A stretch of 64,000 bases of DNA from a virus (lineage: Duplodnaviria; Caudoviricetes). Each line of letters begins with the position of its first letter. Position 1 is the first letter of the stretch. The notes beneath the pieces were generated by a model that saw only the letters and a program-made list of their open reading frames with translations, ran no database searches and was not told the DNA's origin. Shown here one piece after another: positions 25,257 through 58,950 of the stretch. The stretch spans positions 169,960 to 233,959 of IMG/VR virus record IMGVR_UViG_3300029288_000065; one strand, written 5' to 3'. A program made the translations under genes and the position numbers.

Positions 25257-26807
25257 TTAGAGTGACATCTGTCGACCAAATGACCGAGTGTCAACAGGAG
25301 CCTTGTCATCCCCTTCCAGGCGGCTTGCAGGGACGGCATTCTTCGCTGCCCAATTGGCCATATTGTTCAGTTGAGCAGTTGCCGACTTACTGAGAGGATT
25401 GGTACCATTAATACCACACAAAATGAAGTCAGTCGTCAGATCCTTATCAGCAGCAAACGCCTTATACAGGGCAGTGACAACCGATTCTTCCAATTCAGCA
25501 CCAGAGAAACCTTCGCTCTTCTTGCTCAACTCCTTGTAGTTGATCTTGGAAATCAGAGCTTCCCGTTTGAACTTCCTGGTGTGGATCTTCAGAATTTCTT
25601 CCCGTTCCTTATCCGAGGGGAGGCCGACGAAGAAGATCTCGTCGAACCGGCCTTTTCGGAGCAATTCGGGCATTGTATCCAGGATCGATTCGATCCTGTT
25701 GACGGTTGCCACGACGAAGGAAGGACTCTTCTTGTCTTGCATCCAGGTCAGGAAGGACCCGATTACGCGTTGAGTGGTGCCACCATCCGTGGACCCGCTC
25801 CCACCCATCCCGGAGAATGCCTTCTCCATTTCATCGACCCACACGACACAGTTCCCGATTGCGTCGATTGTGGAGAGGGCCAGTCGCATATTCTGTTCTG
25901 ATGCACCGACAAGGCCAGCGAAGATTCGTCCAATATCCAACCGAATGAGGGGAATCCCCATGATGTTGGATGCCACCTTGGCAGACAGGGACTTTCCGCA
26001 ACCAGGGAGACCAGCCAACACGATTCCTCGTGGCTTCGGCAATCCAAATTCTCGTGCTTTCTTGGTGAAGGCCTGTTTGCGCTCTGTGAAGAATGTCTTG
26101 ACATTCTCCAAGCCACCGATATCTCCGACATTCTCGGTTGCTTCGTAATACTCCAGGATGCCGCTCTTCTTGACGACCTGAGCCTTCTCTCGCATTACCA
26201 ACTTTGCAATTGACGGCTTTGGCTCTGGCATATCTTTCCTGCTGACCAGAGCTTTGGCGAAGGCATTTTCAGCTTCGATGGTGGTCAGACCCATTGCAGC
26301 TTGAATGATTTCGTCGTGCTCTTCCTGCGTGAGATTTCCGATTTTCTTCTTGTAGCCATCATAGATCAGCTTCCAGACTTTCTCGATTTCTTCCTTGGTG
26401 GGGAGTTCGAATTCGATCACGGTTACGTCGTGTTCGATGTCCGGAGACACCTTGTTGATTGGGGACACCATGATTAGGGTCTTGGCGTTCTGCTTGAAGT
26501 CCATTGCGATGTCTCGGAGGAGTCGGAGGACTCGCGGGACGTCGAAGTATTTGTGCAGATCGCGGAATACCCAAATCGATGATTCTTTGCTGTTCTTGAT
26601 GCTTTGGAGGGCTTCGATCGGGTCTTCAGTCGCTTCGTGATATTTGTTGTCAGGCGAGAAGAATCCGTCTGTGTGGGACCAGATGATGAGTGGTCGCTTG
26701 AGCGCTTGGGCTACGCCGAGAATGTTGAGTTCTGCGCGGCCTTCTTCGGGGGTGACGAGGTAGAGGACGGGGTAACCGGCGGACACGTAGTGATTGAGTT
26801 CTTGCAT
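25257..26807 (-). CDS. Ycf46-like AAA+ ATPase
   Basis: Degenerate N-terminal AAA (YPVLYL.T.EE.R, DLH), DIGGLENVK, Walker A GLPGCGKS, Walker B WVDEMEK, PELLRKGRFDEIFFV, FSGAELE. Confidence 0.9.
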   Translation of the reverse strand: MQELNHYVSAGYPVLYLVTPEEGRAELNILGVAQALKRPLIIWSHTDGFFSPDNKYHEATEDPIEALQSIKNSKESSIWVFRDLHKYFDVPRVLRLLRDIAMDFKQNAKTLIMVSPINKVSPDIEHDVTVIEFELPTKEEIEKVWKLIYDGYKKKIGNLTQEEHDEIIQAAMGLTTIEAENAFAKALVSRKDMPEPKPSIAKLVMREKAQVVKKSGILEYYEATENVGDIGGLENVKTFFTERKQAFTKKAREFGLPKPRGIVLAGLPGCGKSLSAKVASNIMGIPLIRLDIGRIFAGLVGASEQNMRLALSTIDAIGNCVVWVDEMEKAFSGMGGSGSTDGGTTQRVIGSFLTWMQDKKSPSFVVATVNRIESILDTMPELLRKGRFDEIFFVGLPSDKEREEILKIHTRKFKREALISKINYKELSKKSEGFSGAELEESVVTALYKAFAADKDLTTDFILCGINGTNPLSKSATAQLNNMANWAAKNAVPASRLEGDDKAPVDTRSFGRQMSL

Positions 26808-36379: not shown

Positions 36380-36748
36380 TTATTTCTCGCCTTCGCAGAG
36401 ATCCTTGTACTTGTCAGAAACTGCCTTTAGATCCTTAATAACCTCAGTCGCTCGACCTATATCGAAATTCGGATCAGTAATGTTGAATACTAATTTCTTG
36501 CCAACTTCATAATGCTTATTTTCTGGATGATATTTGGCCACCAAAAGTGTTTCTTTTTGATCGAAAATTATATAAAGGTTTTGAGTAATGAGTCCACGAC
36601 ATGAGATCATAAGATGATCTTCGTCAGTACCATTCCATACTTTCCTGATCTTAATCTTTTGCAATACAGTCGTGACACCATAGGACTTAATGGTGTCACG
36701 AATGTTCTCCATGAGCGTGCGGTTGAGATTCTCTTCCTTCTTAGCCAT
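36380..36748 (-). CDS. DP-motif family protein
   Basis: LVFNITDPNFDIGRATEVI. Confidence 0.7.
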   Translation of the reverse strand: MAKKEENLNRTLMENIRDTIKSYGVTTVLQKIKIRKVWNGTDEDHLMISCRGLITQNLYIIFDQKETLLVAKYHPENKHYEVGKKLVFNITDPNFDIGRATEVIKDLKAVSDKYKDLCEGEK

Positions 36749-38066
36749 TAACCGTCATGTCCACGCAATTACCCCATTCAGGAGCCTTCGCCTTCTCTCC
36801 CGTTTTCTCACGAGCAATCACGAAGATCATCGGGAAAGCACGCTTCTCAGGCCAATTACAATAACCATCGGTCAGCATGATACACGCATTCCCGATCAAA
36901 CCCTGATCTTCCAACCATTTCACAGGAGCCGCCATGTCGGTACCCCCACGACCTCGGACCTGGATACGCTTCCAATCACCGCGACGATACCTTCCATACC
37001 CCTGGAAGGCATGGTCCCATTGGAGTACATTGACCTTGGCACGATAGCAGACTGCCTCGATTTCAGTAAAGAATTGCTCCAGCATCCGGCTGCTCACTGA
37101 ACCAGAAGTATCAACCACTACCGAGACCGTACAAGCAGCATGATGGGAGATTCCCGGTTTCCCAAAGAAATCATGACGCCGATTCCGTCGAGAATAAGTC
37201 CACCTCCGATTACCAACATAAGTTCCCATCAGACGGCGGAGAAGTTCTTTCCACCGAACGACGGGCTTATCCAGAGATTTAAGGATTTCCTTCAGGTGAC
37301 CAGGAACATGACCTTGGCTCTTCTGGCTGGCCTGGTCACAGATGTCCTTGACCACCTGGCGGGCTTCGTCTTCACTGACGTCACTCTGGCCCCAGGTACT
37401 GTGATCATCAACGGTATCCCCGAATCCGTCATTGGGTGCGCCGCCGTCACCAGAACCAGGTTCGTTACTTTCTTCCTCGCCCTGCCCTTGGCCCTGACCC
37501 TGTTTCTGCTGTTGTTTCTGTTTGCCTTTCCCGCCACCACCTTGTGGCTGGCCTTGGCCCTTTCCCTTCCCTTGCTTCTTTCCTTGCGGACCCATCTCGT
37601 TCTGTTCCAGCATTTTGTAATATTCTTCTGCAGATAGACTTTCGTCTACATCACTTGGGCAGTAGATCATGTCTTCTGCTGGCGGGAGGACTTTGCCTTT
37701 CTCTTTATATCCTACTCGTGGGTTGTTCTCGCGGCCATTGACTGACATGTCTGCCGCGACACCCCAAGTTCGCCGATCCCGTCCACCGGTCCTTACTGGG
37801 TGGAGTCGGACGAGGTGTTCGATCAGGTGCTGGACTTGTCCATATAGTTCTTTGAGGTTGTGTTTTGCCACGAATGGGGGATAGAAGAGGGCTTGGATTA
37901 CGCCTCCCTGGACGATTCGGATTCCAAGCTTTCGCTTGCTTTCGTCGGGGATCCAGCTCATTTGGTTGGGGATCCATTCCATGGACATGGCGACGTGGCC
38001 ATACCATGGCTCGCGGACCATCAGCCGGCACCTTGCTTCCATGAGTTTGTCACTGGTTTCACTCAT
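36741..38066 (-). CDS. DUF2201-like metallopeptidase-related plus vWA domain protein (MoxR partner)
   Basis: N-terminal P.YG...HLIEHLVRLH...W.VAAD..VN; Gly/Gln linker; DDHSTW; vWA MIDAS VVVDTSGSV, GRGGTD, MLTDG. Confidence 0.85.
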   Translation of the reverse strand: MSETSDKLMEARCRLMVREPWYGHVAMSMEWIPNQMSWIPDESKRKLGIRIVQGGVIQALFYPPFVAKHNLKELYGQVQHLIEHLVRLHPVRTGGRDRRTWGVAADMSVNGRENNPRVGYKEKGKVLPPAEDMIYCPSDVDESLSAEEYYKMLEQNEMGPQGKKQGKGKGQGQPQGGGGKGKQKQQQKQGQGQGQGEEESNEPGSGDGGAPNDGFGDTVDDHSTWGQSDVSEDEARQVVKDICDQASQKSQGHVPGHLKEILKSLDKPVVRWKELLRRLMGTYVGNRRWTYSRRNRRHDFFGKPGISHHAACTVSVVVDTSGSVSSRMLEQFFTEIEAVCYRAKVNVLQWDHAFQGYGRYRRGDWKRIQVRGRGGTDMAAPVKWLEDQGLIGNACIMLTDGYCNWPEKRAFPMIFVIAREKTGEKAKAPEWGNCVDMTVNG

Positions 38067-38129
38067 TGTTCGGAAGATCCTTTCTCTGTGTTTTATCTTT
38101 TGAGACTTTGGACATAATTCGGTGCGACA

Positions 38130-38642
38130 TTATTTTGTTAGATAGTTGATTAAATTTTCGATACTGTTGGGGTCGTTATATTCTCCTTCGAATTTCTTAC
38201 TTTTGCTGTATATCCTCGCTGTAATCTTTTCATTCCAAAATTCTACAGTGGTTGGACTCGCCAAAAACGTTGTTTGCGTTGGTCGAACTTGGAAATTACA
38301 AAGCCATGGAGTACTATTATTAAATCTAATTTCACTGCATATAAAATTATGTTTCAATAATTCATTCTTTATACCCTCATAGATTTTTCTTAACGTTACT
38401 CTTCGCTTCTTTGTTTCTTGCCCTCTCTTTTGTACTGCGTCCTTCTGTGCTTTTGTAAAGACAGGAGCCATGTCTTTTGGAGGTAATGTTAATGCATTTT
38501 CGAATTCTTCTTTGGTTACAATATAAATTTCTCCTGTTGTTCGGTCACTGCTTAGGCGGATTGCTTCGTCGCCTTTCTTTAATATCTTACCAGTGACGGT
38601 TTTGCATTTCGCAGCTACTTTGACAAGTTGGATATATTTCAT
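38130..38642 (-). CDS. DP-motif family protein
   Basis: FEGEYNDPNSIENLINYL at the C-terminus. Confidence 0.7.
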   Translation of the reverse strand: MKYIQLVKVAAKCKTVTGKILKKGDEAIRLSSDRTTGEIYIVTKEEFENALTLPPKDMAPVFTKAQKDAVQKRGQETKKRRVTLRKIYEGIKNELLKHNFICSEIRFNNSTPWLCNFQVRPTQTTFLASPTTVEFWNEKITARIYSKSKKFEGEYNDPNSIENLINYLTK

Positions 38643-38663
38643 TGGAACCTCCTCTTTTCAGTA

Positions 38664-39029
38664 TCATTCTTCTTTGATTAGAAAATCGTTAATTTCTGGA
38701 ATAATTTTCTCTGGGTCAAAAGATGGATTATTGATATCATAAACCTTGTACTTTTTATACTTCATCATACCGCCTTCACCAAATTTATGAATATCATACA
38801 TCACGATTAAATCCTTATTATTCATACATTCTTCTGATATAGGGGTCACATCTTCTTCCCATCTGGTTCTTCTCAAAAATGGTGGATATATCTCATTTAG
38901 ATATGTTACTATTACTCGCCTTTCAATTTTTGATCTTACTAATCTCTGTATCCATAGATTATTGTAATGTTGATAAACGAAAATATCCTTTCTCCAACCA
39001 TCTACGAATCGGTTAAGTAGGCTGTCCAT
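38664..39029 (-). CDS. DP-motif family protein (tandem copy 3)
   Basis: MDSLL...KKYKVYDINNPSFDPEKIIPEI. Confidence 0.75.
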   Translation of the reverse strand: MDSLLNRFVDGWRKDIFVYQHYNNLWIQRLVRSKIERRVIVTYLNEIYPPFLRRTRWEEDVTPISEECMNNKDLIVMYDIHKFGEGGMMKYKKYKVYDINNPSFDPEKIIPEINDFLIKEE

Positions 39030-39363
39030 CTTTCCCTTCCAGGTATTCTGTAATCTCTTTGATCACTGATTCAGGGTCAAAGGATGGATCTGCGATGTCA
39101 TATATTTTGTATTTCTTATATTTCGCATTACAAATGAAGAATAATATTAGATTCCTTTGAAGGTTACATGATTTAGGTAAGTCGAATTCGGCAGTTGTTT
39201 CTATAAAGTGTTCATGGAGATGGTCGGTATACATTAATGAAACCTGATAACATTTGGACTCGAATGATATCCATTGTGTTCTTATAGACAGAAAAGAATC
39301 ACCTAGTCTAATTATATGAGTATCCCAGAATCTCTCAGAGAAGATTTTAAGTAGGCTGTCCAT
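39013..39363 (-). CDS. DP-motif family protein (tandem copy 2)
   Basis: MDSLL...KKYKIYDIADPSFDPESVIKEI. Confidence 0.75.
   Translation of the reverse strand: MDSLLKIFSERFWDTHIIRLGDSFLSIRTQWISFESKCYQVSLMYTDHLHEHFIETTAEFDLPKSCNLQRNLILFFICNAKYKKYKIYDIADPSFDPESVIKEITEYLEGKDGQPT
39013..39363. repeat. 17-bp direct repeat TTAAGTAGGCTGTCCAT at both gene junctions (39013-39029 and 39347-39363)
   Basis: Identical sequence read at both positions. Confidence 0.8.
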
Positions 39364-39631
39364 TGTTTTCTCGATTCAGGAATTTCCTAACCTCTCTGAC
39401 CACACTATGTGGGTCAAATGATGGATCAGCAATATCAAATTCTCTAACCCGCATCTTCAAACGTCGTTTCCTATATTTCTTAAATGCTACCTTGAGAGAT
39501 GTTTTCGAAAGAGAAATCCGTATATTTCTCTTTTTGGATACTGTTCCAATTGTAAGACTACCGGGGGTAAGAAAACGTGAAGTATCAAGAAATTCGCTTG
39601 TGAAGAAAAGTAACAACTTATCCACCATCAT
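39347..39631 (-). CDS. DP-motif family protein (tandem copy 1)
   Basis: VDKLL...REFDIADPSFDPHSVVREV. Confidence 0.75.
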   Translation of the reverse strand: MMVDKLLLFFTSEFLDTSRFLTPGSLTIGTVSKKRNIRISLSKTSLKVAFKKYRKRRLKMRVREFDIADPSFDPHSVVREVRKFLNRENNGQPT

Positions 39632-39909
39632 TTTAGGGTCACAATCTTCTTGTCACCGGCCAACTCCTGAATCCTCAGGAAAAAGTTGGGGTGGGGCCTA
39701 AACTCCCAACGATTCTTCTCGTGATATTCTTTCGTTTCTTTGATAAATTCCTCTGCGGCAGAAATATATCTATCATATTCCTTGTGTGTCAATTTCCCAA
39801 CCACTTTTGCATAAAAATCAGCACATCCAGCGCCATATCTGGTGTCACATTCCACTGGGTCCCATACTTCTTGGAATGTGTCTTCAACCTGTTTTCTGGT
39901 TACTTGCAT
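39628..39909 (-). CDS. Hypothetical protein
   Basis: RBS AAGGAGG. Confidence 0.65.
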   Translation of the reverse strand: MQVTRKQVEDTFQEVWDPVECDTRYGAGCADFYAKVVGKLTHKEYDRYISAAEEFIKETKEYHEKNRWEFRPHPNFFLRIQELAGDKKIVTLK

Positions 39910-40696
39910 CGAAGTCCTCCTTCAATGCTTGTGCCATCATGCAGAAGTTATCCCTATCTGCTGTGTTTAGTTCTTTTGTTTCAATATAAGGGGACGCAAA
40001 CTTTTTTGTAATCCTAAGATTGTTCTTCTCAAAACAACCCTGGACAGGATAGAATTTGTCAACGCCATCGAACAATAGTTGCCCGTATCTTTGGGTCATA
40101 GTGATGAAATTGATGTAGAACCACATCTCGGATCCACTATTTGGGTCTGCCAAACCTTCTTTACTGGAATCTATCTTGCCGCCTTCTTTTAGACCAACGA
40201 TAGTGATGGTTCCAGATGCAACATAATTTGGTTGGCAGAATCTGAGTCCTTTCTCACTTCTGGTAATTGGTTCTCCAATTTCCGAGAAATTATATGGTTC
40301 ATGCGGTATATTCTTGACTTTTTTGGGTCTTTCTTCGAATTTGGTAATAACCGGCGTCTCCGCGATTATTGGTTTGAGTGCTTGGGGGATTAATTTGTTT
40401 GGGATTTCCGAATTTGGGAGAGTAGTCCTTTCAAGTTCATAACCACCAAATTTCGTAATCTTATAGAAAGACAATTCTTTCGAAATACTATTATTCCAAT
40501 GATAAAGTCTTATATGAATCTGCGCTCTGAAATGATTCTTTCGCTTTATAATAACGTAATTTTCTTTTAATTCACATTCGCATCCTTCGAAATCTGGTTC
40601 TTCTTTGATACATTTTTGGAATACTTTTAAAAGGTCTTCGGCTTTGGCCTGAACTTTTGCATCAGTCACTTCTTTTCCTCCTGGAGGAATGCACAT
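39884..40696 (-). CDS. Hypothetical protein (paralog of 55620-56345)
   Basis: PYNFSEIG...KEGLADPNS..WF.I.F...YG.LLFDG.DKF.PV...LNTADRD. Confidence 0.72.
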   Translation of the reverse strand: MCIPPGGKEVTDAKVQAKAEDLLKVFQKCIKEEPDFEGCECELKENYVIIKRKNHFRAQIHIRLYHWNNSISKELSFYKITKFGGYELERTTLPNSEIPNKLIPQALKPIIAETPVITKFEERPKKVKNIPHEPYNFSEIGEPITRSEKGLRFCQPNYVASGTITIVGLKEGGKIDSSKEGLADPNSGSEMWFYINFITMTQRYGQLLFDGVDKFYPVQGCFEKNNLRITKKFASPYIETKELNTADRDNFCMMAQALKEDFDASNQKTG

Positions 40697-41097
40697 GTAT
40701 CACCAGCAATAACCTTATCAATTAACATCTTTCGTGTAGACGAATCTGGGATGGATGAATAATATTTCTTATAGAGACACAAAAGATCCTCATAACTAAT
40801 TTCCTGTAACAGAGGTGTTAGCAACCCAACCAATGCTCCTCTTGCGAATATTTCACCGACTGTTTTTCTGAGATTATCCAGAGATTTGGGATCATTAAGA
40901 TCAATTTCAATTTTATCTGCATATTTTATTCTTGATCCAGTTACGAAGATTTTGGCGTCTTTTAATTCCAATGATAAAGATGATCCCAATTTATCAGAAA
41001 TACCAGCTGCTGGTATTTCTCCATAACCTGTAGTAAAATCACCCAGTCTTGCATTTCTGATTATTTCACAAAGAAGTTCTCGTTCCAACTTGGACAT
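40666..41097 (-). CDS. DP-motif family protein
   Basis: IEIDLNDPKSLDNLRKTV. Confidence 0.7.
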   Translation of the reverse strand: MSKLERELLCEIIRNARLGDFTTGYGEIPAAGISDKLGSSLSLELKDAKIFVTGSRIKYADKIEIDLNDPKSLDNLRKTVGEIFARGALVGLLTPLLQEISYEDLLCLYKKYYSSIPDSSTRKMLIDKVIAGDTCAFLQEEKK

Positions 41098-41468
41098 TAT
41101 TCTTCCCTTTTCAGGGCATTAAAATGTGACAATATCTTTTTTAGAATTCTATCAAACGACGTTGGATCAGCAAGTTCGAACCTCTCACCAAAACGCCATC
41201 CCATACATTGTGTAACTTTTGGGACCGAAATATTATCATCTCCCCAAGTAACCCTCTCCATATTATCCCAAAACCATAATCTAACATTATATTCGTCATC
41301 TGGATCAATCAACGCACATTCCATTTTATTAATACAAAAACGGAAACAGTCATCTTTTGTCTCTAGAAAATCGCAGGTCAATAATTGCTTTTCTATTTCG
41401 TCCTTTAACCATATTGCCAGTTCATGAAAAACAGACTTGGTAAGTGGGCTTAATGTTCGTATGGTCAT
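41097..41468 (-). CDS. DP-motif family protein
   Basis: RFELADPTSFDRILKKI. Confidence 0.72.
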   Translation of the reverse strand: MTIRTLSPLTKSVFHELAIWLKDEIEKQLLTCDFLETKDDCFRFCINKMECALIDPDDEYNVRLWFWDNMERVTWGDDNISVPKVTQCMGWRFGERFELADPTSFDRILKKILSHFNALKREE

Positions 41469-42127
41469 AATATCTCCTTTAACTTCTCTTCAAAGAACTC
41501 GACATTATGAGCAGTGAAAGGAGCATTCTTCCAATAGAGTTTCCCATCTTTAATATTGAGAACTACAGATTTCTTGTGGGTACCACCACCAGGCTTGACA
41601 GTCATTAGTCTGGCCATGAAATTCATCTTAGGATTGGTCTTTGGATCAGCCAGTTCCTTATTTCCTCTGGTAATCACACGAGCCGAAAGCGTTAGAATCA
41701 GAGTCATTGGGAATTTTTCATACTTGATGTTGATTAGTTCGTTGACGACTTGATATTTGATCTTTTTGAATGTAACAATATATCCGTCTTCAGTTTCTTT
41801 ATATTGGTGATTAAATATTCTTTCCCCGTTCTGCCATACCCAAGTATAAGCAGAATCACGGATTATTCCATACAAATCTGCTGGAACGTCATCCGAGACA
41901 TGTATATCATAAACTTTGGTATAATCAAGATAAGTTGGATTATTCCATTTTCTCCTATAATAGAGATTTTTGGAAATTATTTTTACTTCAATAATATCAT
42001 TGCTACCTCCAACGAATTCACCGGTTAGAATACTTGTCAATTTCACTCTAATTTCGCTTAAATCATATTCATTTATTGGCTTATCAAATCCGAGTTTTTT
42101 CATATCTCTCAAGTCGATCGTGATCAT
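41465..42127 (-). CDS. ELAxP-subfamily protein (paralog of 21882-22436)
   Basis: KELADPKTNPKMNFMARLM...LNIKDGKLYW...FTAHNVEFF. Confidence 0.75.
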   Translation of the reverse strand: MITIDLRDMKKLGFDKPINEYDLSEIRVKLTSILTGEFVGGSNDIIEVKIISKNLYYRRKWNNPTYLDYTKVYDIHVSDDVPADLYGIIRDSAYTWVWQNGERIFNHQYKETEDGYIVTFKKIKYQVVNELINIKYEKFPMTLILTLSARVITRGNKELADPKTNPKMNFMARLMTVKPGGGTHKKSVVLNIKDGKLYWKNAPFTAHNVEFFEEKLKEIL

Positions 42128-42441
42128 TTATTGATTTCCTCTATCATCTTCATCACTTTTCCAAACATTTCATCGTGATTAATAGCTTCATACTTGCCAG
42201 CAATATATTCCCACCAGAGTCTCTTCTTTTCTACATCTACTCTTAGAACTCTGGTTCGACTTTGGATTTCAAATGTTCGTCCCGGTTCATATTCCAGGCA
42301 GATTGCTTCTGCCTTGAAGATTACTTCTGCTGTTGGGTCTTCCAGCATTTTGTTCACGTGGATTGTTGAGACTGATAGTTGGATCTGACAGATAAACTTG
42401 ATCGTCTGGCTACTTTGGATTACTCCAAGTTCTTGCTTCAT
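42124..42441 (-). CDS. ELAxP-subfamily protein
   Basis: KMLEDPTAEVIFKA...VDVEKKRLWW...AINHDEMF. Confidence 0.68.
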   Translation of the reverse strand: MKQELGVIQSSQTIKFICQIQLSVSTIHVNKMLEDPTAEVIFKAEAICLEYEPGRTFEIQSRTRVLRVDVEKKRLWWEYIAGKYEAINHDEMFGKVMKMIEEINK

Positions 42442-42471
42442 GTTGTCTCCTCGCCTCTAGGAAAGACACAG

Positions 42472-42500
42472 AGGCCCCCTCTGGCAGGTAGAGGGGGCCT
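42472..42500 (-). terminator. Intrinsic terminator hairpin after the MoxR gene
   Basis: AGGCCCCCTCT / AGAGGGGGCCT perfect 11-bp stem. Confidence 0.7.
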
Positions 42501-42523
42501 TTAGTACTTCCTAAGAAGCTAGA

Positions 42524-43771
42524 TTACTCGTCCTTGTCCTTACCCCACGCGGTCTTGGACAGGAGATCCTGCAGTTGAGGACGCTCAAGCAGCCGGTCCA
42601 AGAATTTCTTCTTGCCACCGGGGGAGCCGCCAGCCTTACCCAACAGCTTGGCCAACTTCGGATTGGAGATTGCTGCCGCCCGGACGTGATCGTCCACGCC
42701 CGCTCCGCCACCAGACACCAAAGCCTTGCAGAACGCAACCACAAGGTCCTTGTCCGGATTCTGCTTGCACATCCATTCCGCAAAATCCAGAGCGACTTCG
42801 CCAGGCTTGTCCTCTTCGATCTTGGGCTTGATGAAGCCCACGAGGCCCCACATCAGACCTGTCATCTGATTTCGGTTCAGCTTGCCAAGCTGGCCTTCCT
42901 TGGCCTTGACACCGGTCTGAACCAGCTCGCGAGGCTTGACAGGGCAGGAATACCGGCTATACGACATCGCCAGTTCTCGACCGATCAGACCAGCGATGAC
43001 TTCGATTCGGGCTTCCTCGCTATAGCTTCCTTCCTTGCAGGCTTCCTCCACCCTTACGATTGCTTCCCACGACCGCCTTGACGGCTGGATACCGAAGCCA
43101 AGTTCGCCGTCCACGTCACCATCAAGGTGCTTGACGTTCTGCGTGGCGAACTCGATTACCTGGGATGCCCGACCTTCGTGCTTCATACCCATGTAATCGA
43201 CCCATTCATCCAGGGTCGTCTCACCGTCACTCAGAGTGACGTGACAGAATCGATTCAGGAAGGCCGGATCGGTGAATCCGTTCACCATGTAGCCTTCCAT
43301 GAAATTTCCCGCGCAGACCACGGACCAGCCAGGCGGGAGGGTATACTGACCGACCTTGCGGTCCAGGATCAGCTGGAAGATTGCCTGTAGCACGTCGTCC
43401 TGGGCTCGATTGACTTCGTCCAGGAAGAGGATTCCCTGCTTGAGGCGGGGTTGCATTTGGTTCCAATATGCTTCCTTCTTTTCGTCGCCAAGTTCGTTAT
43501 ACTTGGTGATGAATTCCTTGAATTCGATATCGGCGATGGGCATGTCTGCCGGTGGGAGGTAGATGGTTCGTCCGTTTTGTCGGTCAGGGAGGCCACGGAT
43601 GTCGCTGGCTTCAAGCTGCGAGCATCGCATGTCGATCATTCCCATTTCGTCTTCCATTGAGGTCTGTTGGACCACGCTGGATTTTCCGATGCCTCGGTGT
43701 CCCCAGATGAACAGCGTCACATTGGACTTTTTGCAAATCCTGATAGTTTCCTTCAAAGTCTTGATCTTCAT
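42524..43771 (-). CDS. MoxR-family (AAA_5) AAA+ ATPase
   Basis: IWGHRGIGKS, DIRGLP, LFLDEVNRA, LILDRKVG.Y.LP, AGN, DPAFLNRF, PSRRSW. Confidence 0.9.
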   Translation of the reverse strand: MKIKTLKETIRICKKSNVTLFIWGHRGIGKSSVVQQTSMEDEMGMIDMRCSQLEASDIRGLPDRQNGRTIYLPPADMPIADIEFKEFITKYNELGDEKKEAYWNQMQPRLKQGILFLDEVNRAQDDVLQAIFQLILDRKVGQYTLPPGWSVVCAGNFMEGYMVNGFTDPAFLNRFCHVTLSDGETTLDEWVDYMGMKHEGRASQVIEFATQNVKHLDGDVDGELGFGIQPSRRSWEAIVRVEEACKEGSYSEEARIEVIAGLIGRELAMSYSRYSCPVKPRELVQTGVKAKEGQLGKLNRNQMTGLMWGLVGFIKPKIEEDKPGEVALDFAEWMCKQNPDKDLVVAFCKALVSGGGAGVDDHVRAAAISNPKLAKLLGKAGGSPGGKKKFLDRLLERPQLQDLLSKTAWGKDKDE

Positions 43772-51857: not shown

Positions 51858-52269
51858 TTTTCTCTCCTCCCTTTGAGCAACTTGCTTGGGTTTGGATCTG
51901 GTAAATTCGGTGATAACAATAATGATACAGAATAGTAGCAACATCTGCAATGCTGGCAGTAACGATCCACCCTGGGTTATAACCAACTAGGTATTCTCCT
52001 CCATTTTCAGTACCAACGTTCTGGAAATTCATACACGGGATAGATGTGTCCGGTACGAATTTCCAATTCTTCATAAGATCCAAGAACATTGGAGTTTCAC
52101 CAGGCTTGTCAATGTACAAATGTGTTTTTGCCCGTAAAATCTTTTTGTTTGCCCGCTCTTCTGGAGATGATGCCACTGGTCCCAAGTTGGCTCCACAATT
52201 TGGACAGGTTTCCCATCCATCATCGTGGAGCCAAGCATGATCACAGCTCTCGAAAGGATCTCTCATCAA
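51841..52269 (-). CDS. Zn-ribbon hypothetical protein
   Basis: CDH...CPNCG. Confidence 0.55.
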   Translation of the reverse strand: MMRDPFESCDHAWLHDDGWETCPNCGANLGPVASSPEERANKKILRAKTHLYIDKPGETPMFLDLMKNWKFVPDTSIPCMNFQNVGTENGGEYLVGYNPGWIVTASIADVATILYHYCYHRIYQIQTQASCSKGGEKSGETK

Positions 52270-52460
52270 CCACCCAGAGTTTGCTTCTGTTGGTTCTTTT
52301 CCTCAATCTTGTAGAAGTCAGCGGTCTTCTTGTCGTCGACAGTGGTTCCTAGCGCAGATTCGATGGCCTTAGTCAGAGCGCCACAACCAGAGCCACTGAA
52401 TCCTTCGACCTTGACTTCAGTCTTTCCACCCTTACCAATCTTGATCTTTAGCTTGTGCAT
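52266..52460 (-). CDS. DUF2997-like small protein
   Basis: I.I.K.G.T...V.GF.G..C...T..IE.ALG......KT..FY. Confidence 0.8.
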   Translation of the reverse strand: MHKLKIKIGKGGKTEVKVEGFSGSGCGALTKAIESALGTTVDDKKTADFYKIEEKNQQKQTLGG

Positions 52461-52469
52461 CTTTCCTCC

Positions 52470-53615
52470 TTAGTGGCCTTTGTAGTCAAGCATCTTGACT
52501 TCCCAATCAATTATACTACCATCTTCATTCCATCTAGAAATTAGTACTGGTGCATGTCGTTCGCGGGTATTCCAGCCGGTCTTTCCGTGGATATATTCCT
52601 CCTCGAATCCATACAATTCTCCACCATATCTGATACCATACTTATCCTTATCGGGTTTGAAACAGAAGAACCCCAATGTAACAATACCATCCTTGAATCC
52701 CTTACTACGGAAAGGTTTCCCAATCCAATCGGGTTCCCACTTCTTATCTTTCCGTTTCTCCAGGAATTCATTTGCCACTTCTTCGGCCTTCTTACAGGCC
52801 TTCGCCCACACACCTGATTTCTTCAACTTATCTAGAAAGTCATCAGGTTTGACGTGGTTTGTCGCCTTCTTTCCCGGTTCAGGGGCAACTTTACCATACT
52901 TTTCCGCGCATTCATAAAATGCTTCGGCGATTGCTGCACAGCGTTTCTTGTCCACCTTGTGCTGGCTTTCCTGATAATCAGTAAGGTAGACAGGAGTATT
53001 AATGTCTTCCATGCTGTCTTCATCAACAACCAATTCCTCCATCTCCAAAACGTCACCCTGCTTCAGGAGGGCATGAATCCCTTCACACATCTTGAAGAGA
53101 TCATTGTTCTTATATGCCGACATCCCATCCACGATACCAAAGGCGGGGTCATTTTGACCAGCCTTGGCTTTGGCTGTCCCTCTGAGTGCCTTCACAAGCG
53201 CTGAGGAAGCAAAAGACGGAGGAAGGATTGATCGGAGTTTGATTGCTGCTGCAGCAACCTTGAAGTCGAATACTGTCGGGTTTGGGCCGAAGTGTTTCTT
53301 GACGAAGTCTACTACTACCTTATCAGGGATTACCTTCCCCTTTTCTGGGATCGGTACTTTCACAAGGAGTGGTACTGGCGAGAATCCTTCTGCTACCACC
53401 ACCTGGACTGATGGGGTTACTGGAAATTGACAATGATTTGAACCAGAAACTGTCAGGACGCCGTTGTGTTCGGTGATTGTCACTTCTTTATCACCGTCTT
53501 GGAACACACGTACGATGCCGGTTTGGGCGTTTCCGGATTTGGAAATACGTTTCCAGTTTCCTGGATAGGTCTTGCGGATTTCCTTTACGCAATCTTCGGT
53601 GGTGATCTTACTCAT
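52470..53615 (-). CDS. Hypothetical multi-domain protein
   Basis: 381 aa, coupled; no motif recognised. Confidence 0.75.
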   Translation of the reverse strand: MSKITTEDCVKEIRKTYPGNWKRISKSGNAQTGIVRVFQDGDKEVTITEHNGVLTVSGSNHCQFPVTPSVQVVVAEGFSPVPLLVKVPIPEKGKVIPDKVVVDFVKKHFGPNPTVFDFKVAAAAIKLRSILPPSFASSALVKALRGTAKAKAGQNDPAFGIVDGMSAYKNNDLFKMCEGIHALLKQGDVLEMEELVVDEDSMEDINTPVYLTDYQESQHKVDKKRCAAIAEAFYECAEKYGKVAPEPGKKATNHVKPDDFLDKLKKSGVWAKACKKAEEVANEFLEKRKDKKWEPDWIGKPFRSKGFKDGIVTLGFFCFKPDKDKYGIRYGGELYGFEEEYIHGKTGWNTRERHAPVLISRWNEDGSIIDWEVKMLDYKGH

Positions 53616-53823
53616 TCCTTCCCTCGCTTGATTTTCTGGTAACAGTATTGTAGAATTCGATTACGTCTTCTTTGTTTACTCTTTCTTTATGCCCGTTGAA
53701 TTCGAAGTCAATATCGCATCCGAAATCCAGGCATGCTTTGATCGCCGTTAAGAATGCTTCTCTGATGGAGCATCCTTTGTCGATTTCGATGGTCACTTTT
53801 GCGAGGTTGTATTCGTTACGCAT
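53608..53823 (-). CDS. Hypothetical protein
   Basis: G.SI..A...A......F.FNG pattern. Confidence 0.65.
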   Translation of the reverse strand: MRNEYNLAKVTIEIDKGCSIREAFLTAIKACLDFGCDIDFEFNGHKERVNKEDVIEFYNTVTRKSSEGRNE

Positions 53824-54148
53824 GTTTGGTCCCTTCCCTTATCAATCTCACGTGTGAGAACCCATGCCATTCTGGACCATAATGGGTCTCAATACAAACC
53901 GAAGGGAAAGGGCTCCAATAAGGCCAACCATCATACATCCCTATTTCCAGGACTTTGTGTCTGATACCATATACTTCGACAAAGTCACCTACCTTCATTT
54001 CTTTGAGATCTTCTACTGCCTGTTTGACTACCTCAGGATTGGTGCCGCCACCTTGGTTTCTGTCCCAAGAGATCGACATGAAGTCGAAGGACCAGTCGAT
54101 CGGTCCTAGGAGTTCTCCTATTCTTTTGGTGACTTGGATCAACTTCAT
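53816..54148 (-). CDS. Hypothetical protein
   Basis: GMYDGWPYW motif; coupled ORF. Confidence 0.65.
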   Translation of the reverse strand: MKLIQVTKRIGELLGPIDWSFDFMSISWDRNQGGGTNPEVVKQAVEDLKEMKVGDFVEVYGIRHKVLEIGMYDGWPYWSPFPSVCIETHYGPEWHGFSHVRLIREGTKHA

Positions 54149-54840
54149 CGCATCATTTCCAGCTCGATATTCCCCTCAGAGTCTACAGTTTCTTTGATAC
54201 CGTAGTATCCAAGGGACTTGACCTTCTTGAGGACTACTCCCTTGGCGTACTGTTGGATGACCTTTTCGAATTCGGTCATTTTGCCCCAGTGGCCGTTGTA
54301 GTTGTCGAAGTATGCCTTGCCGTTTTTGATGGCAATGGGGTAGTTCCAGCCGGGGAGTTTGATGCTGAGATCACAGGTTACTGTTTCTGAGAAGAGTTTG
54401 ACTTTTTGGTTCTTGGTGGTGTTGATTGTTACACCCTTCATTTGCTTGCATACTTCTTCAAGGACTTTGATGTCTTTGAATTCGACGTCTACGGTTGCTG
54501 TGTGGCTCACGTGGCCTCCTATTCCTGTACGGACTATTATCTCTCTTGCTTGTTTGAAGAATTCTGGGTCTGCCAGTTCAAAGCGGTATTTATATATGTT
54601 ACCGTTTAGGTTGTGAAGAAGATACAACGCAACTTCTGGTTTGATATAGAATACTACATCGCAGACTTGCAAATGTGTATTTTGATCGGGAGCTAAAGCT
54701 ACTACTGCATACACGACTCTTTCTCCTCCTATATGTCCTGGTACTTGATATAAATCTGGTCGTTTCCATATTTTGATATCAATTCCTCTGAACATTTCTT
54801 TTATAATTTCTTCATCGACCATTAAGGAAGTATACTTCAT
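54145..54840 (-). CDS. DP-motif domain fused in frame to DUF1257 (Ycf35-like); internal GTG start at 54510
   Basis: RFELADPEFFKQAREII then VSHTATVDVEFKD...L.LPGWNYP...FDNYNGHWG...Q.YA; AGGAGG before GTG 54510. Confidence 0.75.
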   Translation of the reverse strand: MKYTSLMVDEEIIKEMFRGIDIKIWKRPDLYQVPGHIGGERVVYAVVALAPDQNTHLQVCDVVFYIKPEVALYLLHNLNGNIYKYRFELADPEFFKQAREIIVRTGIGGHVSHTATVDVEFKDIKVLEEVCKQMKGVTINTTKNQKVKLFSETVTCDLSIKLPGWNYPIAIKNGKAYFDNYNGHWGKMTEFEKVIQQYAKGVVLKKVKSLGYYGIKETVDSEGNIELEMMR

Positions 54841-55162
54841 ATGCTTTACCTCTGTGTGTTTCTTTTGGGATCACTGATATAAATCCACATTTCTCCCACG
54901 CACGAATCAACGAAATTACTGATCTCATAATAGCATCGTAATCTGAGTTTTTCTCTCCATTGTCTTCATCAATTAACGAGATACCAGCCCATTCACATAT
55001 ACCACCATATATTACGTTTAGGTCAAAATGGTCTTTTTCTGGGATATTGGACAAAACGAAGCTCCATAAACCAACACCTCTGTCTTCACTACACCATTTA
55101 CGGAAACTTTCATATAATTTCTTTGGGTCAGTTGTTGGATCGTTTAGATCAATATTTTTCAA
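54812..55162 (-). CDS. N-terminal DP-motif winged-helix-like protein
   Basis: IDLNDPTTDPKKLYESF...AWEKCGFI. Confidence 0.7.
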   Translation of the reverse strand: MKNIDLNDPTTDPKKLYESFRKWCSEDRGVGLWSFVLSNIPEKDHFDLNVIYGGICEWAGISLIDEDNGEKNSDYDAIMRSVISLIRAWEKCGFISVIPKETHRGKAYEVYFLNGR

Positions 55163-55641
55163 GATTCCTCCAATTCTTTACACTTAAAAGCTTCCCTTAA
55201 CTGGTCTACGAATTTTGGGTCACTTAAAAAGATAGTGTGTTCTTCTCCATCTGAAGTATGGCAGACTACCGTATTGTCATCTTTGAATTGTATGTAGCCA
55301 AAATATGATTGTTTTCCTGAAGCCCAAGTACTTGTATCTTTTGTAGTAATACTAAATTTATACCTCTCAAATTCCCAACGTTTCTTACCAGCTTTCACAC
55401 ACTTGTTTACTAGAAACTTTGGCATGGCGTCCATGATAATCTTCTTATAGAGATTTTGGTTACGAACTATTTGATCTACTTTACTTCCCAGATCTGTGGA
55501 TGTGGCCTTTAGAACTGCCGCCTTTATGATTTGACACCTTTTTGTGTCAATAAAGCCGTCAAGTTCTTTGGTCGTAAAACCCTTATGGTCACCTTTCAGT
55601 CTTAGAGTTAGTGTCAATTCTACTTCTGTTGTGTAGGACAT
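55159..55641 (-). CDS. DP-motif family protein
   Basis: TIFLSDPKFVDQLREAF. Confidence 0.72.
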   Translation of the reverse strand: MSYTTEVELTLTLRLKGDHKGFTTKELDGFIDTKRCQIIKAAVLKATSTDLGSKVDQIVRNQNLYKKIIMDAMPKFLVNKCVKAGKKRWEFERYKFSITTKDTSTWASGKQSYFGYIQFKDDNTVVCHTSDGEEHTIFLSDPKFVDQLREAFKCKELEES

Positions 55642-56345
55642 GTGTTCATCCTCTTGACCAACCCCCTAAGAATATCTCTGTCTTCTATCGTTAAAACCCT
55701 TGGTGACAGAAGTGGATTTTGGAAATTCTCGGAAATATAACGGAATCCAAGAATACCACCAGTATCCCTTACTGGTGTGAATTTATCACCATCAAATAGC
55801 ATTGTCCCATAACCTGTCTTAGATTCATTGTTATGGAACTTGAACCTAATTAGGAACCAAGCATCAGCTCCAGGTTTGGCAAGAGATTCCTTATCCTCAA
55901 TAATTTTCTCGCCTTCAAGGACAACCACTTTTGCTTTTGCCCAGATAATGCAATTAGAAATATATTGGTTACCTTCGTAGTTGTCTCCTGGTTCACTGAA
56001 CTCATAAGGTGTAACTTTCGGCTTCGATTGTTTCTTCTCAAAACTACTGAATTTCGGAGCCTTCTGCATATATCTATAAACCACATCAGCAACTTTTTCA
56101 ATATTCTCTTCATATAAGCTGATATCATTCTTATAATTATAACCACCATATTTGGTAATATAGTCTATATATATCCAGGATTTACTAATCGAAATCCTAA
56201 ATCGATTTTTCTTACGGAAATAAATCATATCATCATTTCTCTCGATTTTCAGACCTGCCAATATTTGTTTCTTGAATCTGTTCTTAAAATAACAGAGTTT
56301 TTGTGTGATCGATGCTTTAATAAACTGTTTTTTGCCGTCTATCAT
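55620..56345 (-). CDS. Hypothetical protein (paralog of 39884-40696)
   Basis: PYEFSEPG...KESLAKPGADAWF...YGTMLFDGDKFTPV...LTIEDRD. Confidence 0.72.
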   Translation of the reverse strand: MIDGKKQFIKASITQKLCYFKNRFKKQILAGLKIERNDDMIYFRKKNRFRISISKSWIYIDYITKYGGYNYKNDISLYEENIEKVADVVYRYMQKAPKFSSFEKKQSKPKVTPYEFSEPGDNYEGNQYISNCIIWAKAKVVVLEGEKIIEDKESLAKPGADAWFLIRFKFHNNESKTGYGTMLFDGDKFTPVRDTGGILGFRYISENFQNPLLSPRVLTIEDRDILRGLVKRMNTCPTQQK

Positions 56346-56456
56346 TGTTCCTCTTCCTCTCTTCCCTATCCAGGAAGTACCAATATAGCACTAACAATCC
56401 TCTAGCTATAACTAGAGATACTATTGCTACCATGAAGAATACTTCAAATTTATCTT

Positions 56457-56924
56457 TCACTTTTTCAGTTGTTTCCTGTACTTTCGGTTAGCCGCAGTTA
56501 TATGAATCTTATCTTCGAAAGTTAATGATTCTGAATTATAAGCAACAGGAGTCGGCTCACCCTTCTCACTACAAAGAATATACCAATCATCACCATTTGT
56601 TAGAATACAATACTTTGCATGAAGTCTGCCATATGTACAAATGACGTCAAGATAATAGATATCTGCATCTGGGGTCTCGATTCCTATATTCTTATGATTC
56701 TTATCGAGACCAATTAACCCGACACAAACAACATAATCAAAATCTATGAATTTCCCATCATGGTATACTGACCCGCCTTTTGCGAGGATTCCTGTACCTT
56801 GAACATACTTATACTTGGCTTTGTGTGGTATAATCTTTCCTTTTTGGTGTGTCACTTTGATTGGTCGTGGGAATCGGTAGTTTTGAAAAAGCCTAGAGTA
56901 ATCCACGTCACCGCCTCTTTGCAT
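56457..56924 (-). CDS. Hypothetical protein, L[TN]xxD-tail family
   Basis: TPDADIYYL...LTFEDKIHITAA. Confidence 0.62.
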   Translation of the reverse strand: MQRGGDVDYSRLFQNYRFPRPIKVTHQKGKIIPHKAKYKYVQGTGILAKGGSVYHDGKFIDFDYVVCVGLIGLDKNHKNIGIETPDADIYYLDVICTYGRLHAKYCILTNGDDWYILCSEKGEPTPVAYNSESLTFEDKIHITAANRKYRKQLKK

Positions 56925-57285
56925 TTGCCCGTAGGGTCAAATACCTCCGGCAGTATACTTCGTGCTTTTCTGCCACCTTCTCGTGGATGATGACTCCGAT
57001 TCGTTCCTCAATTGAATACCTTCTGGTGAGGAATGCAAAATCTTCGTCATCATTCTTCCACAGGAAGGGTTCTCTGGACTTATCCAGTCCAAGAAGAAAT
57101 TCCTGTTTTTGTTCTTTGGTTGTATTACTTCCTTCCATGTAGCCGCTTAGGGCAATGAGTTCCAGGAACTTCTGGTATTCTGGTTCGTTGAGGACTATTA
57201 CGTCTGCAAGTGCCACATCAGGCACGTATGTTTTGAACTGGAACATGTGTACCTCCTTCTGCATGGCGGTGGTGACCCATTTCAC
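56908..57285 (-). CDS. Hypothetical protein (related to 49029-49718)
   Basis: VPDV....VIVLNEPEYQKFL. Confidence 0.68.
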   Translation of the reverse strand: MKWVTTAMQKEVHMFQFKTYVPDVALADVIVLNEPEYQKFLELIALSGYMEGSNTTKEQKQEFLLGLDKSREPFLWKNDDEDFAFLTRRYSIEERIGVIIHEKVAEKHEVYCRRYLTLRANAKRR

Positions 57286-57400
57286 GGCAACCTCGGAATA
57301 GGAACATGAACGCGATTACTATAATGATGCTGATTACTATAAACATGATTATACTTTTTACTGGATTACTCTTCTCTTCCTCTACCGACAGTGTTACCAT
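57218..57400 (-). CDS. Small membrane protein
   Basis: RBS AAGGAG; single TM. Confidence 0.55.
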   Translation of the reverse strand: MVTLSVEEEKSNPVKSIIMFIVISIIIVIAFMFLFRGCREMGHHRHAEGGTHVPVQNIRA

Positions 57401-57436
57401 TTTGGCTCCTTTTCTATCTTTTCCATGGTATCATGA

Positions 57437-57465
57437 CCACCCCCTCCAACAACGGGAGGGGGTGG
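57437..57465 (-). terminator. Intrinsic terminator hairpin
   Basis: CCACCCCCTCC / GGAGGGGGTGG 11-bp stem. Confidence 0.65.
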
Positions 57466-57482
57466 ATTGACCCACGGAGAAG

Positions 57483-57881
57483 TTACCCGATGGAGATCCC
57501 CAGGGACTTCCCGTCCAGAGCGGCCTTGGAAGCCTCTTCGACTTCCACGGTCACCGGAACTTCGACGCCAAGAGGATCAACAACCTTCCCCTCGACCGTC
57601 TGAGGTTCGGACAATCGTTTATAGAGCTTGTCAAAGACAGCGACACCAGCAGTGTCCTGGTGTTCACGCCGGATTGACGAGCTGGAACCGACTACCAGGA
57701 TCGCGGTCACCGTCTCATCCCCGTTCTTTACGGGGAATTTGATGGTGTCCACGACTCCCTTGGAGAAGGACAAGGGCTTCTTGTCTTCTCGCTGAGGCAA
57801 ACCGAGCAGGGTGATCTGCTGGATGCCTCCTTCCTTGATCTTCCGACTAACCTTGAGTTTGACTTCGACCGACTTGGACAT
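57483..57881 (-). CDS. Hypothetical protein, GC-rich, probably highly expressed
   Basis: RBS AAGGA; followed by a terminator. Confidence 0.78.
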   Translation of the reverse strand: MSKSVEVKLKVSRKIKEGGIQQITLLGLPQREDKKPLSFSKGVVDTIKFPVKNGDETVTAILVVGSSSSIRREHQDTAGVAVFDKLYKRLSEPQTVEGKVVDPLGVEVPVTVEVEEASKAALDGKSLGISIG

Positions 57882-57905
57882 GTGTGTTCCTTTTCGTAGG
57901 GTTAT

Positions 57906-58427
57906 TTAAATGATAAGCCTTCGCTTTCCGAGTAACTTCTCCATAGCCACATCTTTCTTCTCTGGTGGCTTTTCTGGAGCCAGTTCCTCAGGTGTAATAG
58001 TCTGGTCATCTCTGACCCATCTCTTCAATAACGGATGACGATTCCCCCCACCCCCTTTCTTCTTTTCACCTTGTGACGCCTTGAAGAACCATTTGACAAT
58101 GGTCTCAGGCGTCACTTTCTTCGTCTTCTTATTCCCTTTCAACAATTTCTTAGATTCCTCACCATAACAACATTCCACAGCATCCTGGTAAACAGTAAAG
58201 GTAGCAATTACGCCACTACTGTATGGGTCCAGGATGTGAATGTCGGTTGAGAAGTGGATTCTGAAGGTTGCGTACTTATGCATATCGTCCCGGACGATTG
58301 AGAATGTTGGCTTTAGGTATTCCAGGACTTCCAACATAAGTTCTTCTGCTGCGTCTTTGGGTTTGTCAGGGCCGATTACTCGTCCTGAACTACCAAAGCT
58401 CCCCATAGAAATTGGTATCATCGACAT
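57906..58427 (-). CDS. Hypothetical protein with an LGKRRLII tail
   Basis: 173-aa ORF. Confidence 0.68.
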   Translation of the reverse strand: MSMIPISMGSFGSSGRVIGPDKPKDAAEELMLEVLEYLKPTFSIVRDDMHKYATFRIHFSTDIHILDPYSSGVIATFTVYQDAVECCYGEESKKLLKGNKKTKKVTPETIVKWFFKASQGEKKKGGGGNRHPLLKRWVRDDQTITPEELAPEKPPEKKDVAMEKLLGKRRLII

Positions 58428-58491
58428 TTTCGTTTGCCTTTATTAGTCAGCCTTTTGCATATTTGAAAATTAATTTGGGCTTCTTTTTCCA

Positions 58492-58950
58492 TTAGTATTT
58501 CGTCGCCGTAATCTCGATTTCGCCCTCAGCGTTTGTGGTTACTGAAGCCGTGTAGCCAAGGCGGCGAACCTGTTTGACAGCAACCTCCTTGGCATATTGC
58601 CGGCAGAGAAGGTCACAGCTCTTTCCGACCACCTTCTCCAGGCCGTTGCCTCCATTCCAGAAGTCATAGATTAGGTGGTATTTCCCGGTCTTGGGGTTCT
58701 TGACGACGCCGATTTCGTAGGCGTTCTTGTTATTGGCTACGGAAATGGTGTGTTCTGCATCCTTTCCGTAGGTCTTGGGGTCAAAGCCGTTCTTGTAGGC
58801 CGCGTCTTTGCCGTGGTAGTCACCTACCCATTGGCCATACCATTTATAATTCTTCTTTCCTTTGTTGAAGACTAGACCGAGAGCTTTGCATGCTGCTTCT
58901 AGGCATGCGAAATCTTTGATCTCAAGTTCAACGGCTGCCACGTGACTAAT
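58492..58950 (-). CDS. DUF1257 (Ycf35-like) protein with a probable ATT start
   Basis: (I)SHVAAVELEIKD...L..AC..LGL...YKWYG...YEIGVV...L.YDFW..G.GL...Q.YA; AAGGAG 6 nt before ATT. Confidence 0.8.
   Translation of the reverse strand: MSHVAAVELEIKDFACLEAACKALGLVFNKGKKNYKWYGQWVGDYHGKDAAYKNGFDPKTYGKDAEHTISVANNKNAYEIGVVKNPKTGKYHLIYDFWNGGNGLEKVVGKSCDLLCRQYAKEVAVKQVRRLGYTASVTTNAEGEIEITATKY

Follow-up and report, generated by a model that had tools for sequence, protein, structure and literature searches.

Several genes are known to be nested in frame within a longer one, so that a long and a short product sharing their C-terminus are made. Lambda C/Nu3, T7 gene 4A/4B, phiX174 A/A*, and E. coli ClpB and IF2 are examples of this arrangement. 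A different use of joined reading frames is the Rosetta-stone method. This method needs separate orthologues of both halves of the fusion; recurrence of the fusion adds weight, and modules that are promiscuous or abundant give false links. The use of Rosetta-stone fusions as predictors of functional linkage is reportedly due to Marcotte et al. and to Enright et al., both in 1999.

The ORF considered here is located in the final 64 kb of a 233,959-bp IMG/VR virus record (hereafter, the window, meaning the whole 64,000-nucleotide stretch of DNA that was analysed). The source is an uncultured jumbo phage, estimated to be 89% complete, with almost all its genes on the minus strand. The C-terminal part of the ORF is related to DUF1257 proteins, which are associated with DUF2997 and with an AAA ATPase. 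In the searchable literature, this module is represented mainly by the cyanobacterial duf2997-ycf35-fed7 cluster (PMC4284462). In the more distant viral contigs L004 and L006, it forms a tight cassette in the order DUF1257 (120-122 aa, starting with M-S-H), DUF2997 and AAA ATPase. Residues 111-231 of the present ORF are a full-length homologue of the stand-alone phage DUF1257 proteins, 86% identical to that of contig L007 (P0002) and 33-44% identical to others. With the phage cassettes and with the cyanobacterial-plastid Ycf35 (PMC4284462), the locus has in common the M-S-H start, the LPGW.YP and DNY.G.WG blocks and the presence of DUF2997 and of a Cdc48-type AAA ATPase in the genome. It differs from the stand-alone cassettes by 110 extra in-frame codons in front, by DUF2997 and AAA genes that are not adjacent but 1.7 kb and 27 kb off, and by a Pfam score just below the cut-off. 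The locus also resembles nested genes of the lambda C/Nu3 type, in that it has an internal Shine-Dalgarno (SD) sequence with a start codon in the same frame, the short product corresponding to the C-terminal domain. However, both forms of those nested genes are conserved, made and needed, whereas the long form described here is found in one lineage, has halves that differ in composition and origin, and is a product predicted from the sequence.

The ORF consists of a DP-type module, a linker, the DUF1257 domain and a TGA stop (Table 1). An AT-rich domain read without interruption into a GC-richer DUF1257-like one had been predicted, and this was borne out over 231 codons. GC3 is 0.30 for residues 1-110 versus 0.64 for residues 111-231 (Fisher p = 4e-7), the overall GC content is 0.373 for the N-domain versus 0.463 for the DUF1257 half, and windowed GC is of about 0.33-0.40 above position ~54550 versus 0.45-0.50 below. 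Because the chance of finding 110 open codons at the composition of the upstream part (37% GC) is about 2e-4, the latter is considered as a real ORF. The linker between the DP motif and DUF1257 has 8 residues, VRTGIGGH, which are encoded by the SD region, and is followed by V/M-S-H-T-A-T-V, the DUF1257 start. The spacing between the internal AGGAGG and the GTG is 4 nt (AGGAGG-CCAC-GTG, 54520-54508). Such an AGGAGG followed by an in-frame start deep within an ORF is unique to this one among about 320 ORFs of the genome. No RNA structure that would gate the internal SD was detected at the junction (z = -0.28). The JGI gene call places the start of the long form at Met7 (54822) rather than at ATG 54840, giving 225 aa. 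Directly upstream, a 116-aa ORF (window 54812-55162) shares 29 nt with the beginning of the fused ORF, or 11 nt if Met7 is taken as the start. It begins with MKNIDLNDPTTDP, a different DP-containing N-terminal motif that is common to the ORFs at genome positions 2467, 58765 and 84213.

Table 1. Positions, in the window, of the elements of the fused ORF and of the other genes of the module
Feature	Position	Strand	Remarks
Whole fused ORF (P0001)	54840->54145	minus	231 codons, no internal stop
GAGG ribosome-binding site	54849..54852	minus	8 nt before ATG 54840, the long-form start
N-terminal module, residues 1-110	54511..54840	minus	AT-rich, GC3 0.30, ORFan
DP motif FELADPEFFKQAREII, residues 87-102	54535..54582	minus	
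AGGAGG Shine-Dalgarno of DUF1257	54515..54520	minus	Encodes Gly-Gly in the 231-aa form
GTG, native DUF1257 start codon (residue 111)	54508..54510	minus	
DUF1257-type domain, complete, residues 111-231	54148..54510	minus	GC3 0.64
TGA stop of fused ORF	54147-54145	minus	
DUF2997 gene	52266..52460	minus	PF11211, 54.6 bits
Second DUF1257 paralogue	58492..58941	minus	PF06868, 28.4 bits; kept in L007 (82%)
Ycf46-like/Cdc48-type AAA ATPase of the module	25257..26807	minus	27 kb from DUF1257

The boundary of the DUF1257 domain is well defined by its homologues. When 1.8 billion cluster representatives were searched exhaustively with phmmer, 559 homologue clusters were returned, the best 150 of which were examined. 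All of these best 150 align solely to residues 111/112-231, and residue 112 is nearly always aligned to residue 2 of a stand-alone protein of about 121 aa. In the same set, the median length is 121 aa and an x-Ser-His start is found in 121/150. Within the DUF1257 alignment (A2), conservation is 90% or higher at M1, S2 and H3, and the domain studied here shares the conserved W55, D69, N70, G73, W75 and G76. Moreover, AlphaFold2 modelling from the GTG with 72 homologues gave a complete domain, with its first strand at residues 4-8 (pLDDT 92, pTM 0.82). Considering the homologue boundary, the x-S-H starts and the completeness of the fold from the GTG, a complete DUF1257-type gene has its native start at 54510. 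The claim that DUF1257 has there its own AGGAGG and GTG start is therefore upheld. In both relatives, the DUF1257 start is a non-ATG codon, GTG in the window and TTG in L007 (L007:8001-8003), each behind a perfect AGGAGG(T).

The match with Pfam PF06868 amounts to 18.0 bits for the whole ORF and to 20.0 bits (E 8.5e-4) for residues 111-231, the gathering cut-off being 22.2. Since 33 of the 72 aligned homologues match PF06868 (E <= 1e-3, best 2.3e-9) although its own score is below the cut-off, we file the domain, by transitive homology, as a putative divergent phage branch of DUF1257. No match was found in PHROGs for the whole ORF or for either half, in NCBIfam, or among GenBank phages by tblastn. 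The fold of the DUF1257 domain had no match in the PDB with Foldseek at E <= 1e-3. With VIA-align wide, the best hit (TBP-like/KA1-like alpha+beta, Z 5.5) was below the level at which a score means more than a common topology, and no fold was named.

All three parts of the module are present in the genome, but they are dispersed. DUF2997 is usually the immediate neighbour of DUF1257, as is the case in L004, L006 and L007. Here, three ORFs (110, 71 and 381 aa) lie between the two genes. The AAA ATPase aligns from end to end with that of the L004 cassette (E 2e-66). As a further observation, core partners that are adjacent elsewhere are pushed apart by AT-rich ORFs (GC3 0.27-0.41; window 36741-43771 and 25257-54840), and a MoxR-type AAA gene stands about 4.4 kb from its vWA/DUF2201 partner through such ORFs.

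The upstream half has a different character. The phage encodes many small proteins with a strand-cap-helix motif, hxhxDPxxFxxh, in a module of about 110-140 aa (DP proteins), and this motif occurs in the N-terminal module as FELADPEFFKQAREII. The layout of the module is also that of the small DP proteins, with an N-terminal helix, a beta-rich middle and a strand-DP-helix end. A leave-one-out HMM of the family matches it with E 5e-5 (20.3 bits), over residues 81-105 only, that is, the motif itself; a full-length match was obtained with a profile that had included the module. Its paralogues in the genome are diffuse (about 21% identity). Apart from the same phage in contig L026, no homologue was found among 5.8 billion proteins, whether of stand-alone or of fused length, nor in IMG/VR, JGI metagenome contigs or GenBank phages. 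The DP-family alignment is too diverged to yield search patterns for IMG/VR. The DP profile gave no match on three other cassette-bearing viral contigs, an uninformative result in that these are just 12-23% complete, and Pfam had no match for the longer DP proteins.

The motif D is located 20 residues before the GTG and small DP proteins end 17-29 residues past this D, so that the module looks like a whole DP-type gene short of just a stop. The residues at its tail result from translation of the ribosome-binding region of DUF1257, and codon 106, GGA, is one substitution away from TGA. Single-sequence models of the module have a low confidence, AlphaFold2 on the whole ORF without an alignment gave an unusable model (pLDDT 37), and the best look-alikes in the ESM Atlas (best score 0.76, TM at most 0.45) are leads only. 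Prediction of a complex between the DUF1257 domain (72-row alignment) and the N-terminal module scored 0.00 with an uncertain fold of the latter, and argues neither for nor against binding.

DP-type ORFs are common in this genome and have a composition of their own. By a motif-or-profile criterion, they account for 17 of the 112 ORFs of the window (about 15%), and the 16 others have a GC3 of 0.24-0.36, with a mean of 0.31 versus 0.41 for the rest (p = 7e-5). Recognisable core genes have a GC3 of 0.5-0.7. A DP gene is therefore expected beside any given core gene about 15% of the time, and finding one next to DUF1257 is unremarkable. The MoxR-type AAA gene and its vWA partner are likewise separated by AT-rich ORFs, of which some belong to the DP type.

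Comparison with relatives shows that the locus is variable. The closest relative of the DUF1257 domain among the best 150 of the 559 clusters, P0002 on JGI contigs L007/L008 (86-87% aa identity), is a stand-alone protein. In L007, its gene starts with TTG behind an AGGAGGT sequence and is immediately followed by DUF2997. Synteny with L007 extends over window 52266-58941, with 81-86% identity for the core genes; the intervening genes either show 40-55% identity or exist in just one of the phages. L007 lacks the 116-aa ORF, the N-terminal module and the three ORFs that separate DUF2997 from DUF1257 in the window. At the nucleotide level, the two sequences are homologous from the start codon of DUF1257 onwards and unrelated upstream of it. 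A stop in front of DUF1257 in a relative, which had been named with the original prediction as a finding that would speak against it, is indeed present there as an in-frame TAA 21 nt upstream. However, L007 carries a different, decayed DP gene at this place, namely a frameshifted remnant (L007:7525-7920) homologous to window 55159-55641, which ends with ...IIIYLSDPKFVEQLREF... As judged from these sequences, DP genes at the spot before DUF1257 appear to be gained and to decay quickly. Only the short form is found in L004, L006 and L007.

The join itself was found twice. Contig L026 (JGI sample 3300037067, 8,028 bp) is 99.84% identical to window 61241-53223. The differences, 3 SNPs and a scaffold N-run, are all elsewhere, and the whole 696-bp ORF is identical, junction included. 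As L026 carries the same junction, an assembly error at this place is unlikely. Beyond L026, the fused locus was found neither in IMG/VR nor in JGI metagenomes, and the search for the fusion in related phages, suggested with the original prediction, had the same outcome. The join is real yet seen in one lineage only. Just two near-identical assemblies carry the junction.

Taken as a whole, we consider it likely that the ORF is a lineage-specific juxtaposition, without a stop, of two genes of different origin. In such a model, AT-rich accessory genes of the jumbo phage would be rapidly gained and lost around conserved core genes, and juxtapositions would arise as a by-product. A small DP-type gene (residues 1-110) would have landed directly against the ribosome-binding site of DUF1257, where its stop would have been either lost or absent from the outset. 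The simplest route may be the change of a TGA into the GGA of codon 106. Ribosomes starting from ATG 54840 would produce a 231-aa DP-linker-DUF1257 protein, and initiation at the kept AGGAGG-GTG would yield a normal 121-aa DUF1257 with a free Met-Ser-His end. Both the free DUF1257 and the fusion that had been foreseen are thus made plausible by the anatomy of the ORF, as far as can be judged from the nucleotides. The free form probably carries the normal function, together with DUF2997 and the AAA ATPase, and the fusion is probably a tolerated by-product. The expectation that the short form is the functional one relies on the free state of the conserved M-S-H end and on the C-terminal position of the recurrent DUF1257 fusions, and the tolerance of the long form on the Gly-rich linker, which separates two self-contained domains. 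It should be kept in mind that, with a spacing of 4 nt between the SD and the GTG, which is short, and with translation coming from upstream, which may hinder initiation at the internal site, the fusion could be the main or even the sole product. In the latter case, the phage would tolerate or use a DUF1257 with a blocked N-terminus, perhaps owing to the second paralogue (58492-58941). The perfect SD could also have been kept through recency and not through selection.

The original prediction had proposed another meaning for the fusion, a Rosetta-stone link between DP proteins and the Ycf46/DUF1257/DUF2997 machine. In its functional version, DP would be a docking handle that recruits DUF1257 to a partner of DP, together with DUF2997 and the AAA ATPase, which DUF1257 would bring along, or DP proteins would be clients or adaptors of the AAA ATPase, with the internal start setting a regulated ratio between tethered and free forms. 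Several observations are in line with such a tether. The ORF is intact in two assemblies, two complete modules are joined by a short Gly-rich linker, and the phage holds many DP proteins as well as all the parts of the module. In addition, modules that are separate elsewhere, in the case of DUF1257, or typically separate, in the case of small DP proteins, are joined in one ORF, and fusions do exist inside the module, since DUF1257-DUF2997 proteins are represented by three homologue clusters (P0075, P0077 and P0095). In these clusters, the C-terminal DUF2997 scores above the Pfam cut-off and the M-S-H end is free, which supports a direct partnership between DUF1257 and DUF2997, as far as it can be deduced from fused sequences. 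The same comparison is unfavourable to the DP fusion: the DUF1257-DUF2997 fusions are recurrent (three clusters less than 50% identical to one another), join near-universal neighbours and leave the conserved M-S-H end free by being C-terminal, all of which the DP fusion lacks. A DUF1257 preceded by a DP module was found in 0/150 of the best 150 of the 559 clusters and in 0 of about 25 related loci fetched. In the closest relative, the genes are separate and an in-frame stop stands between them. Furthermore, the N-terminal module has no separate orthologue, and DP genes are so frequent, splitting the MoxR/vWA pair as well, that their adjacency to DUF1257 is expected by chance.

The DP motif itself brings little to a specific link. 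A DP pattern (hxhxDPxxhxxh) is found at the strand-1/helix-1 junction, residues 9-20, of 5 (strict) to 8 (loose) DUF1257 homologues (P0034, P0040, P0107, P0108, P0116, P0126, P0130 and P0145). The idea that the DP motif mimics this part of DUF1257 was tried and dropped, the DP profile giving 7.8 bits on these homologues and 10.6 bits on shuffles. Because the pattern occurs in unrelated DUF1257 homologues that the profile scores no better than shuffles, it is best seen, from the sequences at hand, as a generic element made of a strand, an Asp cap, a Pro and an amphipathic helix. The link proposed between DP proteins and the module is not supported, as the fusion alone does not demonstrate that they act together, and a functional tether appears improbable to us. 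Its broadest form, in which the fusion and its internal start would be kept for a set ratio of tethered to free protein and an otherwise orphan AAA+ module, akin to plastid ycf46/ycf35, would have the dozens of DP proteins as its clients or adaptors, DP docking onto the AAA/DUF1257/DUF2997 machine or its partner, deserves slightly less credit again. A true Rosetta stone would provide a first functional handle on the abundant DP proteins of this phage clade and on a widespread, uncharacterised AAA/DUF1257/DUF2997 module. A single fusion with an abundant, mobile and AT-rich module is nevertheless weak evidence of linkage, and the mechanism of the module is better approached through the strongly conserved free Met-Ser-His end of DUF1257 and through the C-terminal fusions to DUF2997, which are recurrent.

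At the other extreme, DUF1257 might be the sole functional product, the 110 upstream codons being an accessory gene that is dying or silent and would give rise to an unstable read-through product or to none. The decay of DP genes at the same spot in relatives, as in the frameshifted remnant of L007, would fit this idea, and so would the ORFan status of the N-terminal module and the low confidence of its single-sequence models. However, 110 open codons have little probability of occurring by chance in 37%-GC DNA (2e-4), the module has a GAGG site and the layout of the DP family from end to end, and it is unchanged in L026. This explanation is also rather unlikely. It may finally be imagined that a stop or a frameshift before 54510 was lost in the consensus by a sequencing or assembly artefact. 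The sequence does derive from metagenome assemblies. Moreover, the +1 frame contains a TAA-TAG right behind the DP helix and would create a GTGA overlap at the start codon, 4-nt overlaps being the commonest type of gene junction in this genome. On the other hand, there is no homopolymer at the junction, and L026 is a separate scaffold from a named sample, in which the 696-bp ORF is found unchanged, the 3 SNPs and the N-run being located elsewhere; an artefact is thus very improbable. The chance loss or absence of a stop, which the original prediction had mentioned as the alternative to a Rosetta stone, is the better-supported reading. This stop-less juxtaposition illustrates how the traffic of accessory genes around the core genes of a jumbo phage can generate chimeric ORFs without depriving the core gene of its own translation start.

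Two sets of minor observations may be added. Averaged over 280 ORFs, the third-position G/T fraction climbs from about 0.42-0.46 in the first tenth of the gene to 0.55-0.60 in the last tenths, and this genome-wide rise confirms a skew ramp anchored on genes. In the DUF1257 half, the fraction goes from 0.14 to 0.73, as expected of a gene starting at the GTG. As a test of one gene versus two genes, the ramp was dropped, the N-terminal half having no ramp and single genes being too noisy. Finally, a third relative, L009 (L009:239-1011), is 99% identical in amino acids over DUF1257 residues 153-231 (90.5% in nucleotides). A 76-aa ORF that is absent from the window comes there directly after DUF1257, and is followed by homologues of the 110-aa and 381-aa ORFs of the window, without the 71-aa ORF.
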